A stretch of DNA of 22,871 nucleotides from a plasmid, in the sequence record NZ_AP024191.1; one strand, written 5' to 3'. The notes beneath the pieces are model-generated. The model worked only from the letters and a program-made list of their open reading frames with translations, was not told where the DNA came from and ran no database searches. The translations under genes were made by a program, and so were the position numbers. Every line of letters starts with the position of its first letter. The stretch's first letter is position 1. This document shows positions 3,001-20,365 of the stretch, in pieces.

Positions 3001-3671
3001 AACAGAATCCGCGCTGACCCGCCCCGCTCGAGCGCGGTGCGTTCGGCGATCTTGAGCGCAGTGAACGTCTTGCCGGTGCCGCACGCCATGATCAGTTTGC
3101 CGCGGTCGTTGCCGGCCTCGAACCCGGAGAACACCGCGTCGATCGCTGCCTGCTGGTGCAGGCGCGGATCGTGCCGCTTCGCCTCCGAAAGCTCCACCTG
3201 CAGCTCACCGGCGGGCCACGCGATGTTCCAGTCGATCGGAGACTCGGCGATCTCCGCCAACCCGATCCGCTGCACCGGAATCGTCTGGTCCTCGAGCGCC
3301 GCCTCGGCGTTCTTTCCCCACCGATCGGTGGTCGAGATGATCACCCGGTTCGTGAACGGCTTCTTCCCCGACGCCGTGAAGAACGAATCGATATCGCCCT
3401 TGGCGAGCATGTGGGTCGGCTCGTAGAACTTGCACTGGATCGCCGTCAACGCCCCGGTATCCCGTTCCCGGGCGACCAGGTCGATCCCGGTATCCGGCTT
3501 CCCGTCGCGGCCCGGCCACTCCGTCCACCGCCACACCTGGTCGTACTGCTGCGACAGCAGCGGGTCGAGCTGGAAGTAGCGGACCATCAACTGCTCGAAC
3601 TTCGTGCCGCGTTCGGAGTTGCTGGGTGCCTGACGGAACGCCTCGATGACCTCGTGAACCGAACCCGACAC
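1..3671 (-). CDS. Type ISP-like single-polypeptide restriction-modification enzyme, N-terminal ~1223 aa (Mrr-like nuclease + SF2 DEAH helicase + gamma-class N6-adenine MTase). Open past the left window edge.
   Basis: Hand translation of the minus frame is continuous from GTG at 3671 to position 1. Nuclease: GIDLVARERDTG...AIQCKFY. Helicase: motif I MACGTGKTFT, Ia VPSISLLSQT, II LVICDEAH, III LYMTATPR, VI QSVGRVMR. MTase: GIVYTPVEVVDFI, ILDPFTGTGTFL, VVIGNPPY. The only minus-strand ORFs the track lists in 1-3671 are in the other two frames, so this frame has no internal stop there, and an edge-running ORF would not be listed. The same frame stays open upstream to a TGA at 4229..4227, overlapping the divergent gene, so GTG 3671 is the nearest plausible start. 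Confidence 0.85.
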   Translation of the reverse strand, partial: MSGSVHEVIEAFRQAPSNSERGTKFEQLMVRYFQLDPLLSQQYDQVWRWTEWPGRDGKPDTGIDLVARERDTGALTAIQCKFYEPTHMLAKGDIDSFFTASGKKPFTNRVIISTTDRWGKNAEAALEDQTIPVQRIGLAEIAESPIDWNIAWPAGELQVELSEAKRHDPRLHQQAAIDAVFSGFEAGNDRGKLIMACGTGKTFTALKIAERTALERGGSARILFAVPSISLLSQTLREWTAQTQLDLRAFAVCSDTKVSRAAEDIGAVDVAIPVTTDPATLAAEMAHRKRAKGLTVVFTTYQSLPVVAAAQQQGVDPFDLVICDEAHRTTGVTLAGEDESNFVRVHDGDFLKASRRLYMTATPRLFDDKVKDQAAEHSAELASMDDEAVYGPEFHRLSFGEAVERGLLTDYKVIVLTVDEDLVASPLQQQLAGEFSELKLDDASKIVGCWNGLAKRAGRSPDGTGFAPGEPPMKRAVVFAKDIAASKQVAEVFPSVVDAYRDLLEENENDGHAVSATNRDLACSVHHVDGTFNALQRNAELSWLKAPVPEGECRILTNARCLSEGVDVPALDAVMFLNPRNSVVDVVQSVGRVMRKADSKDYGYIILPVAVPAGVSPSQALSDNRRFKVVWQVLNALRAHDDRFNAMVNSIALNTTTTEAKKTGKGSSLLMGDHIGPVSSDNESVAGAGSSTDAASTADASGSVTEGGTDGGQMATQMALFSLSEWQEAIVAKIVDKVGTRAYWEDWAADVADIAAAQITRIKALLAGASPEVAAAFEKFHQGLKDNLNDSITRDDAISMLSQHLITKPVFDALFAEHDFASHNPVSKVMEAMVGTLGDSGLEAETAKLDGFYASVRTRAAEVTTADGKQKVIAELYEKFFRLGFRKQSEALGIVYTPVEVVDFILRAADQASKDAFGRGLTSEGVHILDPFTGTGTFLTRLLQEHIFPEDLARKYTEELHANEIMLLAYYIAAVNIESTYHAIIGSEGAAEYTPFEGIVLADTFQITEDGDSLDSVMFPQNNDRIIRQKQIPINVVIGNPPYSKGQESANDLNANVSYPTLDGRIGATYAARSTATNKNSLYDSYLRAFRWATDRIGDTGIVAFVSNGGWIDGNTADGIRLSLADEYSRIYVYNLRGNQRTAGELSRKEGGKIFGSGSRNTVAILIGVKNPDHTGDCEIFYRDIGDYLSREDKLAIIAGDTLPSIDWQSITPNTHGDWTNQR

Positions 3672-9427: not shown

Positions 9428-10030
9428 TCAGCGATTCGGTTTCTTCGCCTGGAGGCGTTCGAGCGCGCGGCGTTGCTGCCGTGACATTCCCGCGGTGTCG
9501 CGGCTCGGGATGACGGCTTCCGGCGGCGGTGGGGTGGTGCGGCGGCGGTAGTCGTCCAGGCGTGGCGTGATGCGGAGGACGGCCTCGTGCAGGGGAGTGG
9601 GGAGTTGTTGCCCGGTCAGTCGCGGGCCGAGTCCGGCGCTGAAGAAGTCCAGGATCTTCGCGAGTAAGTCGGGGTTGCGCATGACGTGCATCGCGACATC
9701 GTGGTTATCGAGGTAGCGGGCGGGAGTCGCCGTGGGCGGAGGATCCCGGTACTCGACGGCGGGCACCGGAACGGGTTTTTCGATGGTGCGGGTCTGCCGG
9801 ATCACCTGCATCCCGACGGCGCCGGCGCGGGCCGCCTTGCGGGCGCTGTGGGCGTCGCGGCGGCACTGATCGCTGCACCACACCCGCGGCCGGCCCCGCC
9901 CCGAATGCGTCGGAACCGGGGTCTGGCACCACGGGCAGATTCCCGGATCCGCGTCCTCGTCGGTGCGGCGATCCGCAGGATCCACGGCCGCGTTTTCGGT
10001 GTCCTCGTGCGGCGGTTCGGGCGTGCTCAT
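9428..10030 (-). CDS. Hypothetical zinc-ribbon protein (CPWC...WCSDQCRRDAHSARK), 200 aa. Start taken at ATG 10030 rather than the track's 10633.
   Basis: The upstream part of the track ORF 9428..10633 is R/S/P-rich, contains the 9-bp tandem repeat and looks non-coding. Sequence from MSTPEPP... onward has ordinary composition. Confidence 0.5.
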   Translation of the reverse strand: MSTPEPPHEDTENAAVDPADRRTDEDADPGICPWCQTPVPTHSGRGRPRVWCSDQCRRDAHSARKAARAGAVGMQVIRQTRTIEKPVPVPAVEYRDPPPTATPARYLDNHDVAMHVMRNPDLLAKILDFFSAGLGPRLTGQQLPTPLHEAVLRITPRLDDYRRRTTPPPPEAVIPSRDTAGMSRQQRRALERLQAKKPNR

Positions 10031-10071
10031 GGCCGGAAGCTTATTTCGTCGCGCCAAAATTTCACATTTAG

Positions 10072-10087
10072 TGCAAGAGGTGTGTGG
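10072..10087. repeat. Copy A of a 16-bp long-range inverted repeat TGCAAGAGGTGTGTGG (flanks TTAgTGCAAGAGGTGTGTGGtG)
   Basis: Exact reverse complement of 11485..11500. Lies about 40 bp upstream of the zinc-ribbon gene start. Confidence 0.6.
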
Positions 10088-10516
10088 TGCTTTTGGGCTG
10101 GACCGGCTGGGCCACAGCCGGGTGAGAACTGTGGAAGCGGAGGTGGAGGGATCGGTGGCGGGAGGTAGGTCGGGTACGGCACTTGGTGCGGCAGCTCGGG
10201 TTGCTCGTTCGGCGTTGTCGTCGCTTCCCCGCGGGCGGATCCGCCGGCCGTGTGCGGGCGCTGATCGTCGAGCGGTGCCGAGTGCCTTTCTCGGCACCGA
10301 CACCGGCGACGGAGCCGTCGACCCGGCGCGAGGGCGGGAGCTGTCTCGTCCCGAGAATCGGAAAAGCGGGTACTGCCGCGAGGCCGCTGCGCGACCTCTT
10401 GCCCTCCGATTCCACGCGCAGACGCGACTTGTGTGCGCGACGGTTTCGCTGGGATAGCCGCGGCCGATTCTTGTGCAACTTGCGAAGCCGTAGTGGGGCC
10501 CCGGGAGCGGAGGAAC

Positions 10517-10582
10517 GAGCAGAGCGAGCAGAGCGAGCAGAGCAAGCAGAGCGAGCAGAGCAAGCAGAGCAAGCAGAGCAAG
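10517..10582. repeat. Tandem repeat, about 7.3 copies of the 9-bp unit RAGCAGAGC
   Basis: Seen in sequence (GAGCAGAGC three times, then AAGCAGAGC, GAGCAGAGC, AAGCAGAGC twice, then AAG). It produces SEQ/SKQ or LAL runs in the overlapping track ORFs. Confidence 0.9.
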
Positions 10583-10587
10583 ATATT

Positions 10588-10607
10588 GCAAAACCCCGGG
10601 GTTTTGC
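10588..10607. repeat. 20-bp perfect palindrome GCAAAACCCCGGGGTTTTGC
   Basis: Seen in sequence. Sits 5 bp after the tandem repeat. There is no loop, so it could be a protein-binding site or a cruciform-type hairpin. Confidence 0.85.
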
Positions 10608-10772
10608 CTTGTGCCTGCCGCAGGCCCGGTCACCGGGAGGTGAGGAGTCGGTGGGCCGCCGTCCCCTTCTCCCGGGCGGCCGAGGTGGGTTCGGCGAGTG
10701 GCGGAGTCGGGTTGGCGCGGGGGGTCATCGGGCGCACGTGGCGGTGGCCGCGGCCTCGCCGCCGGCGGGTGG

Positions 10773-11015
10773 TCAGGTGCCGGTCTCGACCCACTCGATC
10801 ACGGCGTCGGCCGGTGCGGCGGCGCCCAGGGTGTCGAGGTACTCGAGGACCATCGCGCGGGCGTCGTCGAGATCGCGGGTGCCGTAGGTCTGGGTGGTGC
10901 CGTGGCCGTCGATGTCGAGCTCGAGACCGGCCACCCGGCGGCGACCCTGCCACCACGGACCGCGGGTCTGCCACCGGCTCACGGTCACCCGAAGCGTGTT
11001 CATCACGGCCAGCAT
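10773..11015 (-). CDS. Small protein with a HicB-like (UPF0150-fold) antitoxin signature, 80 aa
   Basis: GHGTTQTYGTRDLDDARAMVLEYLDTL resembles the HicB N-domain G.VTQG.T.EEA....DAL. The plus-strand ORF overlapping it is G/A/V-rich antisense. Confidence 0.35.
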   Translation of the reverse strand: MLAVMNTLRVTVSRWQTRGPWWQGRRRVAGLELDIDGHGTTQTYGTRDLDDARAMVLEYLDTLGAAAPADAVIEWVETGT

Positions 11016-11051
11016 GCCACCCCCGCCGGCGGGTACGGCGGTGCTTTCGGG

Positions 11052-11282
11052 TCAGGCGAGGTGGATGCGGTGATCGCCGAGATCGACCTCGAGCCGCAGA
11101 CCCACGCCGAGCGTGTCGGTGTAGGCGCGGACCGTCTCGACCGTCAGCGCACCCAGCTCGCCGTGCTCGATCGCCGCGACCGCGGCGACGTCGATGCCGG
11201 CACGTGTGGCGACGTCACCGCGCGAGAGTCCGGTCGCCTCCCGCAGCTCGAGTAGCCGCTGTCCGCGGAGGCGCCGCAGCAT
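11052..11282 (-). CDS. XRE-family HTH transcriptional regulator, 76 aa. Start is the internal ATG of the track ORF 11052..11921.
   Basis: LRELREATGLSRGDVATRAGIDVAAVAAIEHGE is a Cro/C1-type HTH. The upstream part of the track ORF is R/P/S-rich and non-coding-like. Confidence 0.7.
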   Translation of the reverse strand: MLRRLRGQRLLELREATGLSRGDVATRAGIDVAAVAAIEHGELGALTVETVRAYTDTLGVGLRLEVDLGDHRIHLA

Positions 11283-11484
11283 CCGCGCCTTGTGCGCGGC
11301 GACCGCCTCCGCGTCGGCGGGCCGGCGGGCCAGTAGGGCATCGAGACCGACCACGCTCACGCTCCTTGTCTGCACCCGCCGATCGGATCGACGGAAGTGT
11401 TCGCAGCATCGAGCAGACCACCACCGCCGCCGCCGCGTCCACCCCGCGGCCGGAAAAACGTCCCGTCGAAAAAGAGTCGAAACC

Positions 11485-11500
11485 CCACACACCTCTTGCA
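11485..11500. repeat. Copy B of the 16-bp inverted repeat CCACACACCTCTTGCA (extended CCCCACACACCTCTTGCATTAA)
   Basis: Reverse complement of 10072..10087. Lies in the divergent promoter region between the XRE gene (minus) and the plus-strand operon starting at 11818. Confidence 0.6.
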
Positions 11501-11817
11501 TTAAGGTAACGAAAAGATAACGACGCTGGTGGGGGCTTCCCGGACCTTCCGCTGCAGACCGGTGGACGGGGGCAGGCGGCGGGCGCCTGGGCGGTGTCGC
11601 ACCGAGGTGCGAGAGTGAGCACAACGGCCGTGCGCGACGGCTGAGAAGAGGTGATGGCGGTGAGCGACGGGGAACGCAGCGAGCAGGACTGGGAGCAGGC
11701 GGCGCAGTGGGCCGAACACGCGATGCGGCTGCCGGCAGTGTCGGTGACAGCACGGCGCGGTGCGGACGCGACTCACGTGGGCCGGCGACTGCTCGCACGC
11801 ACCCAAGAGCAGAACCG

Positions 11818-12111
11818 ATGACTATCGACGACGCGGCGCGGCCGCCGGACGGGACGGGTGATCTGGCGCGGCGGCTACGGCAGGCCCGCGCCGAGCTACT
11901 CGCGCTCGACCGCACCCTCACCGCACTCGCGGCCGCCTACGACGAGCTCCCCGACGGATCGCTCAGCGAGGCCGATCGTGCCGCCCGCATCGAGATCATC
12001 GACAGCCTCTCCGACACCCAGATCGCCCTCGGGGAGGCCGGCGAGCCGTTCGCCAGCGCCCTCTGGAACGCCGACCGGCTCGCCGGAGAACCCGCCCCCG
12101 GCCACACATAG
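11818..12111 (+). CDS. Hypothetical protein, 97 aa (first gene of a plus-strand operon)
   Basis: Internal ATG of the track ORF 11707..12111. Ordinary amino-acid composition. Confidence 0.45.
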   Translation: MTIDDAARPPDGTGDLARRLRQARAELLALDRTLTALAAAYDELPDGSLSEADRAARIEIIDSLSDTQIALGEAGEPFASALWNADRLAGEPAPGHT

Positions 12112-12183
12112 AGACCATCCGGGGTTCGGCGACCGGGCGCCGGGAAACCGGTTGCAGCAACTGCCACAATGGACGACACACGT

Positions 12184-12208
12184 CCCCGCCGTACCCCTTG
12201 CGGCGGGG
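12184..12208. terminator. Hairpin CCCCGCCG-(9 nt)-CGGCGGGG between the first and second genes of the plus-strand operon (attenuator/terminator candidate)
   Basis: 8-bp perfect GC stem seen in sequence. No U-tract. Confidence 0.35.
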
Positions 12209-12239
12209 ATGTCTCATCTCCCCGGCGCCCGCTGTTCCG

Positions 12240-12614
12240 ATGCAGCAGGGGCGGATCGAGTGGAAGGGGCCTGTGGTGGTCGTGACCCGCAAGGTGTTCC
12301 GGCAGAAGATGCTGCAGGCGGCGATCCTGGCCAAGATCGACCGCGAGCACCTGCGGATCGACACCGACCGGGTGCGCGAGAGCCTGCAGACGGTTCGCCG
12401 CAACGTCTCCCGCGACCGGTTGATGCTCTCCTACCTTGTCTGGTGGGAGCGGATCGTCGACGGCAACGACATCGAGGAACTACGTGCCGTGGTCGCCCGG
12501 GACGACGAGACCGGCAACGACATGCGCAACCTATCGCCGCTGTACGTGTTGTTCACCGAAGACGAGCGCCGGCAGTTCCTCGAGGCGTTCTGGGCCCAGT
12601 GGTCGCTGCAGTGA
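12240..12614 (+). CDS. Hypothetical protein, 124 aa
   Basis: High third-position GC and ordinary composition. Its stop overlaps the next gene's start (GTGA). Confidence 0.5.
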   Translation: MQQGRIEWKGPVVVVTRKVFRQKMLQAAILAKIDREHLRIDTDRVRESLQTVRRNVSRDRLMLSYLVWWERIVDGNDIEELRAVVARDDETGNDMRNLSPLYVLFTEDERRQFLEAFWAQWSLQ

Positions 12615-12883
12615 CTTCTCCAGGCTTCCGGTCAACGGAGCTCCGCCCCTACGCTGCGGCGGTGAACGCGGACCACAGCTACGACATCCTGACGATCGAA
12701 CTCGGTCCTTACGACGACCTTGCGACGTTGACGCGGGATCTGGCGAACCACGCTGGAACCGCAGCCACGCTCGCGTGGCAGGAAGAAGGCCGTGTCGTCG
12801 TATCGGTATCGCACTCCGTCACGGCCATCGATGGAAAGTTCTTCGGAACTGTCCTGCTGACGACTGACCTACAGTCCGCGTAG
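12611..12883 (+). CDS. Hypothetical protein, 90 aa, translationally coupled (GTGA) to the upstream gene
   Basis: C-terminal part of the track ORF 11858..12883, in the same frame. The upstream part is R/P-rich antisense-like. Confidence 0.45.
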   Translation: MTSPGFRSTELRPYAAAVNADHSYDILTIELGPYDDLATLTRDLANHAGTAATLAWQEEGRVVVSVSHSVTAIDGKFFGTVLLTTDLQSA

Positions 12884-12940
12884 CTGTTCCCAAGGCTCGG
12901 GACACTGCTCTGCACGTAGTCAGTTTGGAAGACTGATGCG

Positions 12941-12971
12941 CCACGAATGGCCGGTACAGCCGTACTTTGGG
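12941..12971. terminator. Hairpin GGCCGGTAC-(13 nt)-GTACCGGCC
   Basis: 9-bp perfect stem seen in sequence. Lies between the 90-aa gene and the 501-aa gene. Confidence 0.3.
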
Positions 12972-13001
12972 TACCGGCCGAGAGGGTTCTGCTGAACTCG
13001 T

Positions 13002-14507
13002 GTGGTGGTTGCACTCGATACGCCTCTGAATGCACGTCAGCTCGAGATCCTGCAGTGGGTGGGCGCGGGCTGTCAGGCCCGTGAGTGGCCGGACTCGACC
13101 TATAAGACCGTGGCGATCGCCCTACAGAATCGGCGGCTGATCGCGATCTCGAAGAAGGGCGGGACGTGGAGCGCCAGCGTCCTCGACGCCGGCCGTCACT
13201 ACCTGGACCACGGAACGTATCCGATCGGGCACCTGAAACCGAAGCGAGCAGCGCCGTCTCCGTCCTCGACCGCGATCCGTGACCGGCAGACACGTCGCCC
13301 AGCCGCGCGAGGCCCTGTGCCGACACCGACTTTGGCGCCGGCGGCTGATGCCGAAAAGGACCGTGTCCCGGCGGCGCCGAAGCTGACTCCGACACGGCAA
13401 CTGCTCCAGGACATCACCGAGGCCGGTGGCACATTGACCCGCAACGTCAAGGACGACAAGACCCAGTACGCGATGCTCGTCTCCACGATCAACCGGCGAG
13501 GAATGGCCCCGGATGGGCAGCGCCTGATCATGGATACCGGTGCGACCTACTACGACCGGATCTTCCACTTCGACGATCTTCCGGAGTGGAAGACGATGCC
13601 GCCCCGGGACGTCGTCGCCGCCGCACGGATCGGCCGCTGGCATCCGGTGGTGGCCCAGATCCGCGACGACCGCCGCGCGACCGTGTTCACCGTCGAGGTC
13701 CGGACCCGGGCGCTGCGCATCCTGCACGCGATCGCCACCGAAGCGGAGGCGAGAGGCCACCAGGTGAGCGCGCCAGCGAAAAACACCCCCTACGGGGGCG
13801 GTCGCAATGCGCACAAGGAAACCGGGCAACTCGTCATCAGCATCCGGTCCCGCCGGTTCTTCGTCAGCCTGCACCAGCGCGACGACTACACCCCGCACGC
13901 GCCCACACCGAAGGAACTCGACGAGCAGCGCAAGTGGGAATGGAGACGGCCCCCGAAATGGGACACCACCCCCGGCAAGCGCCTGAAGCTGAGCATCTAC
14001 GGTGACGTCTTCCACGGGTGGGAGAGGCAGTGGGACGACTCGAAGACCCTCAAGGTTCGGATCGAGGACCATCTGGCCGACGCCATGGAGATGATCGAGG
14101 ACGTCGTCGGCCGGGAAGAGGCGCGCCGGGCCGCCGAGCAGCGGGCGTTGGAGGAAGAGAACCGCAGGAGAGAAGCCGCCGAACAGCTCATCGCGGGCCG
14201 GCACGCCGAAAACGTGCGCGCCGAAGTCCTCGACCGACAACTCGCCGCCTGGCAGCACACGACCGCGCTGCGCGAGTACCTCGCCGCGATGTCGGCCCGG
14301 ATCGACACCGTTACCGACGAGTCTGCCCGCCAGGCGGCCACCGCATGGCTGCACTGGTGTCAGCGGCACGTCGACTCCCGCGACCCACTCCACCGGCCTC
14401 CGGCGATGCCGGCCATCCGGTCAGCGACCTGGGAAGAGCGCTCGGCCCTGCTCCGGGCGATCATGGCCGAACTCGCTGCAGATCCCGCCGCCGGCGGCGA
14501 ATCCTGA
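13002..14507 (+). CDS. Large hypothetical protein (501 aa). N-terminal winged-helix-like segment and a C-terminal E/R/A-rich coiled-coil-like segment.
   Basis: LNARQLEILQWVGAG...TVAIALQNRRLIAISKKG at the N-terminus. EEARRAAEQRALEEENRRREAAEQL at the C-terminus. No catalytic motif recognised. Confidence 0.5.
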   Translation: MVVALDTPLNARQLEILQWVGAGCQAREWPDSTYKTVAIALQNRRLIAISKKGGTWSASVLDAGRHYLDHGTYPIGHLKPKRAAPSPSSTAIRDRQTRRPAARGPVPTPTLAPAADAEKDRVPAAPKLTPTRQLLQDITEAGGTLTRNVKDDKTQYAMLVSTINRRGMAPDGQRLIMDTGATYYDRIFHFDDLPEWKTMPPRDVVAAARIGRWHPVVAQIRDDRRATVFTVEVRTRALRILHAIATEAEARGHQVSAPAKNTPYGGGRNAHKETGQLVISIRSRRFFVSLHQRDDYTPHAPTPKELDEQRKWEWRRPPKWDTTPGKRLKLSIYGDVFHGWERQWDDSKTLKVRIEDHLADAMEMIEDVVGREEARRAAEQRALEEENRRREAAEQLIAGRHAENVRAEVLDRQLAAWQHTTALREYLAAMSARIDTVTDESARQAATAWLHWCQRHVDSRDPLHRPPAMPAIRSATWEERSALLRAIMAELAADPAAGGES

Positions 14508-16559: not shown

Positions 16560-16597
16560 CATGTCCGGGCGGCATCCTTAGATGCCGCCCGGACATG
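16560..16597. terminator. Strong hairpin CATGTCCGGGCGGCATC-CTTA-GATGCCGCCCGGACATG (17-bp perfect stem), directly 3' of the 51-aa minus-strand gene
   Basis: Seen in sequence. It separates the end of the sigma/XRE/ImmA operon from the 303-aa gene's upstream region. Confidence 0.55.
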
Positions 16598-19357: not shown

Positions 19358-20320
19358 TCAGGTGTGTTTGGTGCACAACAGATTCGGAGTGGTGCACCAA
19401 CCCTGGTCTTCGAGCCAGCGGTGGACCGCGGAGGGTAGGCCGCTTGTGGGTACGGCGCCGATGACCAGTGGCCCTTCGCCGCAGAGACCGCAACTGATCG
19501 CTATGACCTGCTGGTGGGGTTGGCATCGGACGCAACGCCGATGCTCGCGGACCTGGCCGTCGGAGTCGACGTGCAACCAGACCATGTCGAGGTCGTCGAG
19601 GTGCGGGCCCGCCTCCTGTCGTGTCGACGGCCGGTAACCGCAGGTCGGGCACGTCAATCGGTCCTCACCCGGACCAGGAGTGGAAACGGCTGCCGGGACA
19701 GCACTGTCGGCCTCGATCGGGGCCGCGGGTGAGACGGTCATCAACTCTGTCGGCCTCGGTGGCAGGTGCCGGTAGAGGGTGGAGCGGGTCAGTCCGGTCT
19801 TGGCGACGATCTCGGAGACGGTGGCGCCAGTGTCTCGTAGTTGGATGGCGTGGGCGATCTGGGATTCGGTGACCACCGACGGGCGGCCGGTGCGCCGGCC
19901 CTTCGCGGTCGCGACCTGGCGGGCGTGGGCGGCGCGTTCGAGGGTGTAGGTGCGTTCCATCTGTGCGAACAGTGCGAGTAGTACGACGGCCAGCTGTGCC
20001 ATCGGGTCGTCCGGGTTCGAGGAGTCGATGCGGATCGGATCTGCCAGGTTCCGCACTCCGATGCCACGCTCGCGTAGGTCGTGGATCAGGTTCAGGGTGT
20101 CGCGCACGTTCCGGCCGAGCCGGTCGAGGGTGTGCGTGACGATGACGTCGCCGTCGCGGGCGTACTCGAGCAGTGCGGTCAGTCCGGGGCGGTCGGTGGT
20201 GGCCCCGGACTTCTTGTCGACGTAGATGTTTGCCGGGTCGATCCCGGCCGTGGTGAGGGCGTCGATCTGCCGGTCGAGGTCCTGTTTGGTCGTCGACACC
20301 CGCGCGTATCCCAGCTCCAC
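19358..20320 (-). CDS. Serine recombinase (resolvase/invertase family) with a roughly 120-aa Cys-rich C-terminal extension. An alternative GTG start is at 20365.
   Basis: GYARVSTTKQDLDRQ has the catalytic Ser context. DVIVTHTLDRLGRN follows. HTH: TVSEIVAKTGLTRSTLYRHL. Tail: CPTCG...CVRCQ...CGLCG. Confidence 0.8.
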   Translation of the reverse strand: MELGYARVSTTKQDLDRQIDALTTAGIDPANIYVDKKSGATTDRPGLTALLEYARDGDVIVTHTLDRLGRNVRDTLNLIHDLRERGIGVRNLADPIRIDSSNPDDPMAQLAVVLLALFAQMERTYTLERAAHARQVATAKGRRTGRPSVVTESQIAHAIQLRDTGATVSEIVAKTGLTRSTLYRHLPPRPTELMTVSPAAPIEADSAVPAAVSTPGPGEDRLTCPTCGYRPSTRQEAGPHLDDLDMVWLHVDSDGQVREHRRCVRCQPHQQVIAISCGLCGEGPLVIGAVPTSGLPSAVHRWLEDQGWCTTPNLLCTKHT

Positions 20321-20365
20321 GCCGGGAGCGTATCGAAAGTTGCCCCCGTAGCAAGGTTTCGACAC

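Follow-up and report, generated by a model that had tools for sequence, protein, structure and literature searches.

What is the role of a short inverted repeat whose two arms lie in outward-facing promoter regions of a plasmid? The question is raised by a Prescottella equi plasmid with a pAL5000-type replicon, of which a stretch of 22,871 bp (sequence record NZ_AP024191.1; the whole stretch is hereafter the window) was analysed, and in which a 16-bp sequence recurs in inverted orientation on either side of an interior of about 1.4 kb. We consider it moderately probable that both arms are nic cores of a MOBF-type origin of transfer (oriT), on a relaxase-less plasmid that would be mobilized in trans. 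The arms are read in this way because a relaxase is the sole common protein at loci elsewhere that carry the core beside a relaxase gene, and because the core is strand-specific, asymmetric and invariant and resembles MOBF nic regions. A relaxase could be detected neither in the window nor in the related small plasmids, and helper-dependent mobilization is predicted because the window plasmid lacks one.

The original prediction had given TGCAAGAGGTGTGTGG an exact reverse complement on the far side of the interior, with one copy just upstream of a zinc-ribbon gene and the other between a divergent XRE gene and a plus-strand operon. These statements are borne out: both copies are exact, the left copy precedes the ATG of the minus-strand zinc-ribbon gene by 42 nucleotides (nt), and the right copy is flanked by the minus-strand XRE gene and the plus-strand operon (Table 1). 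A repeat search extends the arms to 25 nt with 88% complementarity (10068–10092 and 11480–11504). With up to three mismatches allowed, the two arms are the only matches to TGCAAGAGGTGTGTGG in the window, where 0.16 are expected, and none of 100 shuffles gave at least two. Of Markov-1 shuffles of the window, 4.5% contain a perfect 16-nt inverted repeat within 3 kb and 19.5% contain one at any distance; the in-window statistics for the repeat are only marginal, and it is significant because it is conserved in other sequences, not because of these statistics. Both arms are oriented outward, each toward a transcription unit, and the core is asymmetric, with no internal dyad.

The evidence that carries the oriT reading comes from the genes next to which the core is found elsewhere. 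A motif-only scan of public metagenome and viral contigs with the 17-mer ACACACCTCTTGCAYTA returned 122 loci, at 35 of which a MobF (TrwC/TraA-type) relaxase-helicase gene starts 29–221 nt downstream on the same strand. A zinc-ribbon gene takes that downstream same-strand position at 23 loci, and one locus has both gene types. The other 65 loci mostly look like chance matches; their median GC content is 0.52 versus 0.66 for the gene-linked loci, and 38 of them fall below 0.55. The relaxases downstream of the core are mutually just 38–76% identical, and at most of the relaxase-linked loci there is no nearby zinc-ribbon gene, the relaxase being the only protein in common. Among ten sampled annotated MobF plasmids, seven carry the core (at most two mismatches) 33–123 nt upstream of mobF: P. 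equi pVAPA2285, R. ruber R1 p1, Rhodococcus sp. GA1 pGA2, R. qingshengii pCP2, M. yongonense pMyong1, M. abscessus pGD42-2 and Clavibacter pVL1. A conjugation study of pVAPA reportedly addressed the oriT of that plasmid. The order core, zinc-ribbon gene, mobF is found in Gordonia pGRS1 (L164, 287–689) and in metagenome locus L138 (1259–1756). The former is a complete annotated plasmid, with a perfect core, a palindrome, a 113-amino-acid (aa) zinc-ribbon gene and mobF immediately after it. By analogy, the zinc-ribbon gene at these two loci would occupy the position expected of a relaxosome accessory gene.

Two side observations concern these loci. A divergent gene for a basic, coiled-coil-like protein of about 150–190 aa lies beyond the core in L157, L160, L161, L162 and metagenome group M1 (for example L063, 9647–10126), and is seen both in MobF plasmids and in environmental loci in which a zinc-ribbon gene replaces the relaxase gene. 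In the PLSDB database, pGD42-2 and pVL1 are typed as non-mobilizable despite their annotated mobF genes.

The core resembles the nic region of F and R100. Read antisense to the adjacent gene, the left arm of the window is GCAAGAGGTGTGT GGTGCTTTTGG (that is, TGCAAGAGGTGTGT GGTGCTTTTGG), followed by a hairpin and then by GGTGAGAAC. The F oriT reads GCAAAAACTTGTTTTTGC GTGGGGTGT↓GGTGCTTTTGGTGGTGAGAACC, with GCGTGGGGTGT↓GGTGCTTTTGGTGGTGAGAAC around the nick (marked by the arrow here and below), and an R100 variant reads GTAGTGTGT↓ (PMC3074121). Positions 10072–10096 of the window share with both the pattern TGC-purine-rich-GGTGT↓GG, that is, a strand-specific core ending in GGTGT↓GG. Moreover, the 15-mer GTGTGGTGCTTTTGG (10082–10096) is identical to the F oriT across nic, and GTGT↓GGTGCTTTTGG is the same in F and in the left arm. 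On the 3' side, GGTGAGAAC is present in both F, where it lies 13 nt 3' of nic, and the window; the stem of the preceding hairpin (10103–10121) varies compensatorily among the relatives, and GGTGAGAAC is conserved. A hairpin of 5–6 bp ends 9–10 nt 5' of the putative nick, as in F, in some relatives; clear hairpins of this size are present in L013, L159 and L160. The polarity is also that of F, with the relaxase gene located 5' of the putative nick in the related elements, so that it would enter the recipient last, like the tra genes in F. By analogy with F, the putative nick in the left arm would lie between 10085 and 10086 on the plus strand, and that in the right arm between 11487 and 11486 on the minus strand.

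The likeness to F and R100 has limits. The bases 5' of GGTGT are TGCAAGA here and TTGCGTG in F, and the core is flanked here by direct repeats (GTkAyC twice), whereas the F oriT is flanked by binding sites for IHF, TraY and TraM. In addition, the hosts are actinobacterial, there are two to three copies per plasmid, and no cognate relaxase is encoded in cis.

The flanking repeats form part of a wider architecture. Relaxase-linked loci follow the arrangement CGTTAyC-N4-CGTkACCT-TArTGCAAGAGGTGTGT↓GG, and the right arm of the window, read on the minus strand together with 11501–11525, is an exact fit to it (CGTTATC-TTTT-CGTTACCT-TAATGCAAGAGGTGTGT↓GG). M. abscessus pGD42-2 matches the right-arm tail at 22 of 23 positions. 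The repeat pair (GGTCACGA/GGTAACG) stands beside the core at 13 of 32 relaxase-linked and 9 of 21 zinc-ribbon-linked metagenome loci, and also in pCP2 and pMyong1; GGTkC often follows the core at other loci. The core and its associated boxes are printed in no paper of the searchable literature.

Among the small plasmids related to that of the window, the core has the form (C)ACACACCTCTTGCA(Y)TA when read toward the adjacent gene, spans about 11–17 nt, and is present in two to three copies per plasmid at more than 15 distinct Rhodococcus/Prescottella loci. These loci, on pAL5000-type plasmids, were collected by means of the zinc-ribbon protein. The motif recurs in related plasmids and stays confined near the zinc-ribbon gene, within about 1.2 kb of which all core copies lie in whole-plasmid scans, and shuffled sequence gave 1.4 matches per 125 kb. 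The copies in the opposite orientation precede different genes. In the window and in L003, L005 and L008 this is the operon that encodes the 138-aa protein (the 138-aa gene is likewise preceded in L021), in R. qingshengii-type plasmids and pREC01 a divergent paralogue of the zinc-ribbon gene, and in pRDE05, pREC01 and pREC2 repA. All 13 plasmid records with a zinc-ribbon gene are typed as non-mobilizable in PLSDB. In each of the strains GA1, R1 and Y14, a small core-bearing plasmid is found together with a MobF plasmid, and pGA3 and pGA2 have the extended core context ggggacACACCTCTTGCAgtt in common.

The gene most constantly associated with the core in the small plasmids encodes a protein with an N-terminal module composed of CxxC-(10–14)-GRPRxWCSxxCRxxA and a very basic conserved helix. 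The module is widespread (246 cluster representatives), occurs sometimes in four to five copies per protein and once as a fusion to TniQ, and is absent from Pfam. The window protein has no match in Pfam, NCBIfam or the sequences of the Protein Data Bank (PDB), its remote relatives likewise lack a Pfam domain, and a Foldseek search of its AlphaFold model, which is of moderate quality (predicted local distance difference test score of 66), gave only insignificant matches in the PDB. The core is present upstream of every intact zinc-ribbon homologue in the Rhodococcus/Prescottella loci. A gene-first search found no core upstream of four remote homologues on viral contigs, so that not all members of the wider domain family are accompanied by it.

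The promoters of these zinc-ribbon genes have a fixed layout, in which the core is followed by 16 nt, a near-palindromic 13–18-mer (box 2), TAnnnT, 7 nt and an ATG or GTG start codon. Ten of 12 distinct promoters have 7 nt between TAnnnT and the start, the remaining two have 8 nt, and the sequence in between varies; from this fixed geometry a leaderless zinc-ribbon mRNA is predicted. Box 2 has zero mismatches in 13 loci. Across the 12 promoters, the core and box 2 stand out with mean column identities of 0.95 and approximately 0.96, respectively, whereas the upstream flank reaches 0.57 and the first codons 0.68; the proteins encoded behind these conserved cores are mutually just 45–78% identical. 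Palindromes resembling box 2 are also found in the M1 metagenome group (TTTCGTCCGTACGAAA) and in Gordonia pGRS1 (ATTCGTCCGACGAAAT). Box 2 is probably a site for a repressor or an accessory protein. The zinc-ribbon protein is a candidate oriT-binding accessory protein or autoregulator, because its gene is always beside the core and lies between core and mobF in pGRS1, and because the protein has a basic helix. In L009 (3860–4040), and also in L010–L012, an A-type zinc-ribbon gene is 5'-truncated, with a terminator-like element fused near codon 24; the deletion took out box 3 (a conserved non-coding element described below), the core, box 2 and the start codon.

These observations suggest how the site might work. 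The nic region would be 5'-TA(A/G)TGCAAGAGGTGTGT↓GG-3' on the strand antisense to the outward gene. A MobF relaxase from a co-resident conjugative plasmid, for example the P. equi virulence plasmid, would recognize the core, cut one strand after GGTGTGT and lead it into the recipient. The zinc-ribbon protein would have a part like that of TrwA or TraY, binding oriT as an accessory factor and regulating its own gene, and, with the core overlapping or adjoining promoter elements, the bound proteins would also co-regulate both outward units. A combined role of the core in DNA processing and in regulation of the adjacent unit is likely, because it overlaps promoter elements and every copy faces a gene. 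The comparisons show the sequence identity and its conservation, its place and orientation relative to relaxase and zinc-ribbon genes, the likeness to the F/R100 nic region and the lack of a relaxase in the window; from these we infer the nicking position, the identity of the binding proteins, the activity of both copies and transfer itself.

Two known arrangements come close to the one proposed. In R388, trwA is an accessory gene between oriT and the relaxase gene, and TrwA is a ribbon-helix-helix protein. The order in R388 is oriT-trwA-trwB-trwC, with oriT directly upstream of the operon and the small gene for a DNA-binding accessory protein before the MOBF relaxase gene (PMC4853378). The order of core, zinc-ribbon gene and mobF in pGRS1 and L138 is similar; unlike in R388, the small protein is here a zinc ribbon with a basic helix, and the window plasmid keeps the site and the small gene only. 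Mobilization by a relaxase supplied in trans, through oriT copies on relaxase-less plasmids, is described for staphylococcal oriT mimics and 'hitcher' elements (PMC11389934). In the present case too, plasmids typed as non-mobilizable match the oriT-type core of conjugative plasmids of the same genus, three times within the same strain. The differences are that the putative system is of the actinobacterial MOBF kind and that its sites are inverted duplicates fused to backbone promoters.

Several observations weigh against an oriT core. An oriT is usually single per replicon, whereas two to three inverted copies are present per plasmid (two in the window); elements with two oriTs exist, and two copies are atypical yet compatible with membership of this class. 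The 15-mer identical to F contains four bases that are conserved in the family, the 11 bases 3' of the nick being plasmid-specific, and a hairpin 5' of the putative nick is weak at the left arm and absent at the right. Two of the ten sampled MobF plasmids are without the core in the region examined, and one has only a diverged look-alike. On plasmid contig L137 the core is central in each arm of a longer inverted repeat, and the contig carries neither a zinc-ribbon nor a relaxase gene. Relaxase adjacency is absent in the window itself and is found in related elements, which is the expected look of an oriT that is used in trans. Finally, all copies are directed at genes, as a promoter or operator would be, whether at the zinc-ribbon gene, its paralogue, repA or the 138-aa operon, and TGCA(C/T) is located 16 nt from TAnnnT in pVAPA (TGCAC, 16 nt, CATAAT, 7 nt and a GTG start), R1 and pCP2, where it could be a plain −35 element.

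The last two points lend themselves to a reading in which the core is purely transcriptional, an operator or promoter (an extended −35 or an upstream site) bound by the zinc-ribbon protein or the host RNA polymerase, which would co-regulate the outward units and precede relaxase genes merely through a shared promoter type. We regard it as a tentative possibility. The orientation is always toward the downstream gene, copies also stand before repA and the 138-aa operon, that is, before non-transfer genes, and the box 2 palindrome lies in the promoter spacer, as a repressor site would. However, the invariance spans 14–17 nt, of which 8–11 nt lie upstream of any −35 hexamer, and the resemblance to the F/R100 nic region, together with the canonical polarity, is left unexplained. 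The geometry before the zinc-ribbon gene is fixed, yet −10 hexamers stand 29 nt from the core in class A and 44–46 nt from it in classes P and M1. Helical phasing of box 1 and box 2, considered as an argument for an activator, was dropped since this distance is not phase-conserved between the classes. The core tracks the zinc-ribbon module and not RepA/RepB, but most relaxase-linked loci lack a nearby zinc-ribbon gene and share only the relaxase. Scanning 9900–11750 for consensus promoters and terminators gave nothing, including no consensus sigma-70 promoter; by eye, TGCA(C/T)-16-TAnnnT can be seen in pVAPA, R1 and pCP2, whereas the right arm of the window has TTGCAT-16-TAACGA. What the original prediction said of a shared promoter or operator stands insofar as the arms face outward into transcription units and TGCA(C/T) can serve as a −35 element in relatives; an ordinary operator is less probable than an oriT core. 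The KorA/KorB operators of IncP plasmids and those of the Streptomyces kil-kor regulons are repeated palindromes bound by known repressors. As in those systems, one short sequence is repeated in divergent backbone promoters beside a small autoregulated gene for a DNA-binding protein, but their operators are palindromic and do not lie upstream of relaxase genes in unrelated elements, and the core here is asymmetric.

Two further readings concern the interior. The arms might be recombination sites at which the plasmid serine recombinase, or a relaxase, inverts or exchanges the 1.4-kb cassette; the plasmid carries a resolvase-family gene, recombination between two oriT copies is within the capacity of MOBF relaxases such as TrwC, and the interior content differs among relatives (an XRE gene, unique to the window plasmid, with a HicB-like gene; a MobC-like gene instead in L003; a TIR-domain gene adjoining the HicB-like gene in L001). 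This we consider improbable, as the core lacks the internal dyad typical of serine-recombinase sites, the minimal plasmids pRDE05 and pREC01 have three copies with neither a recombinase nor a HicB-like gene, two copies are directly repeated in L023, and no inverted variant was seen, the HicB-like gene, which is found inside the pair at seven other loci, having the same orientation relative to the zinc-ribbon gene in 8 of 8 loci. A serine-invertase segment of the hix/gix kind was rejected in particular, in view of the asymmetric core, the resolvase gene 8 kb away (19358–20365), the recombinase-less plasmids with sites and the single orientation in eight loci. The original prediction also offered a small inserted element, with the XRE/HicB-like module between the arms and the arms as its terminal inverted repeats. 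The inverted 16–25-nt arms 1.4 kb apart have that appearance, as do the 76-nt inverted arms around a regulator gene in L137. The proposal is nevertheless hardly credible: no target-site duplication flanks either definition of the arms (direct repeats of 2–10 nt were sought), no transposase lies between them, where only the XRE and HicB-like proteins are encoded, in relatives it is the interior that varies, the arms remaining with the genes outside, and the core occurs singly upstream of relaxase genes. In addition, the right arm is missing from L001, where the left arm and most of the interior are present; L002, too, has the left arm only.

Three other candidates for what acts at the core were discarded. 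A site for RepB or the pAL5000-type replication origin is ruled out by pNC500, pDK5 and pRWAY04, RepA/RepB replicons (RepA 74–83% identical) with neither zinc-ribbon gene nor core and with the RepB recognition helix unchanged. An XRE operator is ruled out because the XRE gene is found in the window plasmid alone and the core is widespread. The HicB-like protein is an unlikely binder, as it is missing from pRDE05 and pREC01.

The features of the region are collected in Table 1.

Table 1 Features in and around the inverted repeat (positions are those of the window; the arrow marks the putative nick)
Feature	Position	Strand	Description
Zinc-ribbon gene	9428–10030	−	200 aa; CxxC...GRPRVWCSDQCRR and basic helix
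−10 hexamer TAAGCT (10038–10043), then 7-nt gap to ATG 10030	10031–10043	−	Predicted leaderless promoter
Box 2 GGCGCGACGAAAT	10043–10055	−	Near-palindrome ATTTCG-N6-CGAAAT, between left-arm core and −10 hexamer
Left arm	10072–10087	+	Core, plus strand reading TGCAAGAGGTGTGT↓GG; exact repeat
Hairpin CCGGCTG/CAGCCGG (10103–10121), then GGTGAGAAC (10121–10129)	10103–10129	+	Side of the left-arm core that would be transferred first
Box 3 GCGGGAGGTAGGTCGGGTACGGC	10158–10180	+	Conserved non-coding; about 75 nt from left-arm core
9-bp tandem array (10516–10582), then CAGAGCAAGATAT and hairpin (10574–10607)	10516–10607	+	Tandem Repeats Finder
Interior genes	HicB-like 10773–11015; XRE 11052–11354	−	XRE protein matches HTH_3
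Right arm	11485–11500	−	Same core, minus strand reading TGCAAGAGGTGTGT↓GG; exact repeat
Two direct repeats GGTAACGA (11505–11512) and GATAACGA (11516–11523)	11505–11523	+	11 bp apart; gene-proximal side of right-arm core
Outward operon downstream of right arm	11651–14507	+	Proteins of 56, 97, 138 and 501 aa; open reading frames and GC content at third codon positions

Other non-coding elements near the arms are conserved as well. Box 3 is nearly invariant and is found in nearly all relatives. It lies near repA in pREC01, pREC2 and pRDE05, though not in L023, and about 200 nt upstream of repA in pNC500, a plasmid with neither core nor zinc-ribbon gene; box 3 may be an element of the origin of replication. 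The tandem array, with about seven copies of AGCAGAGCR, is a plasmid-specific expansion of CAGAGCRAG, which precedes a conserved element composed of CAGAGCAAGATAT and a hairpin whose stems covary in more than ten loci (AAAACCCCGGGGTTTT, AAAAGTGTTCACTTTT and ACTTAGGTGCCCTAAGT). The region as a whole looks like a bidirectional terminator that closes the interior operon. No known RNA was found in the interior, the sole Rfam match being a sub-threshold chance hit. On the XRE side of the right-arm core (11466–11484), two direct GTCGAAA repeats with 11-bp spacing lie in a region conserved with L005; the interior operon of XRE and HicB-like genes may have its promoter or operator there.

The replicon of the window encodes RepA, with Replicase and PriCT_1 domains, and a sigma-4-like RepB. 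Beyond the left arm lie the zinc-ribbon gene and a gene for a 126-aa protein, and the left-arm promoter region probably serves, after these two genes, repA-repB as well. The window also contains genes for ParA/ParG, a Fic protein, a resolvase and a fragment of a Type ISP restriction enzyme. None of the four proteins of the outward operon could be assigned to a family. The longest perfect inverted repeat of the window is a 17-bp stem with a short loop at 16560–16597 (CATGTCCGGGCGGCATC...GATGCCGCCCGGACATG); it belongs to the lower-GC part of the plasmid and is a possible terminator. L137, a lower-GC plasmid contig with relatives of RepA and RepB, carries a 76-nt inverted repeat (2229–2304 and 3124–3199, 89% complementary) whose arms enclose a gene for a 257-aa protein with three sigma-4/HTH_23 domains.

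A broader proposal, which goes beyond the oriT reading and which we hold to be speculative and rather unlikely as a whole, is that small pAL5000-type Rhodococcus/Prescottella plasmids typed as non-mobilizable, the element of R. equi clone 2287 among them, are mobilizable through two inverted, functional MOBF nic sites, such that either strand could be transferred or the cassette inverted or exchanged by the relaxase. The zinc-ribbon proteins (CxxC...GRPRxWCSxxCRxxA) would then constitute a previously unrecognized class of relaxosome accessory protein that binds oriT and couples transfer to the expression of replication and backbone genes.

If the core is an actinobacterial MOBF nic site, it would provide a sequence marker for oriT in Rhodococcus, Prescottella, Mycobacterium, Gordonia, Clavibacter and relatives. 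Catalogued oriTs at present fail for this group: a survey from 2021 found no match in oriTDB on Mycolicibacterium plasmids carrying 63 MOBF relaxases (PMC8190616). The unannotated zinc-ribbon domain family would be nominated as a family of DNA-processing accessory proteins. Small plasmids that are labelled non-mobilizable would, if the reading is true, become candidates for helper-dependent transfer. One relative typed in this way is the plasmid form of IME2287, an element of the multidrug-resistant R. equi clone 2287 (PMC10669575), and through it the finding, if true, would bear on the spread of resistance-associated and accessory DNA in a zoonotic pathogen.

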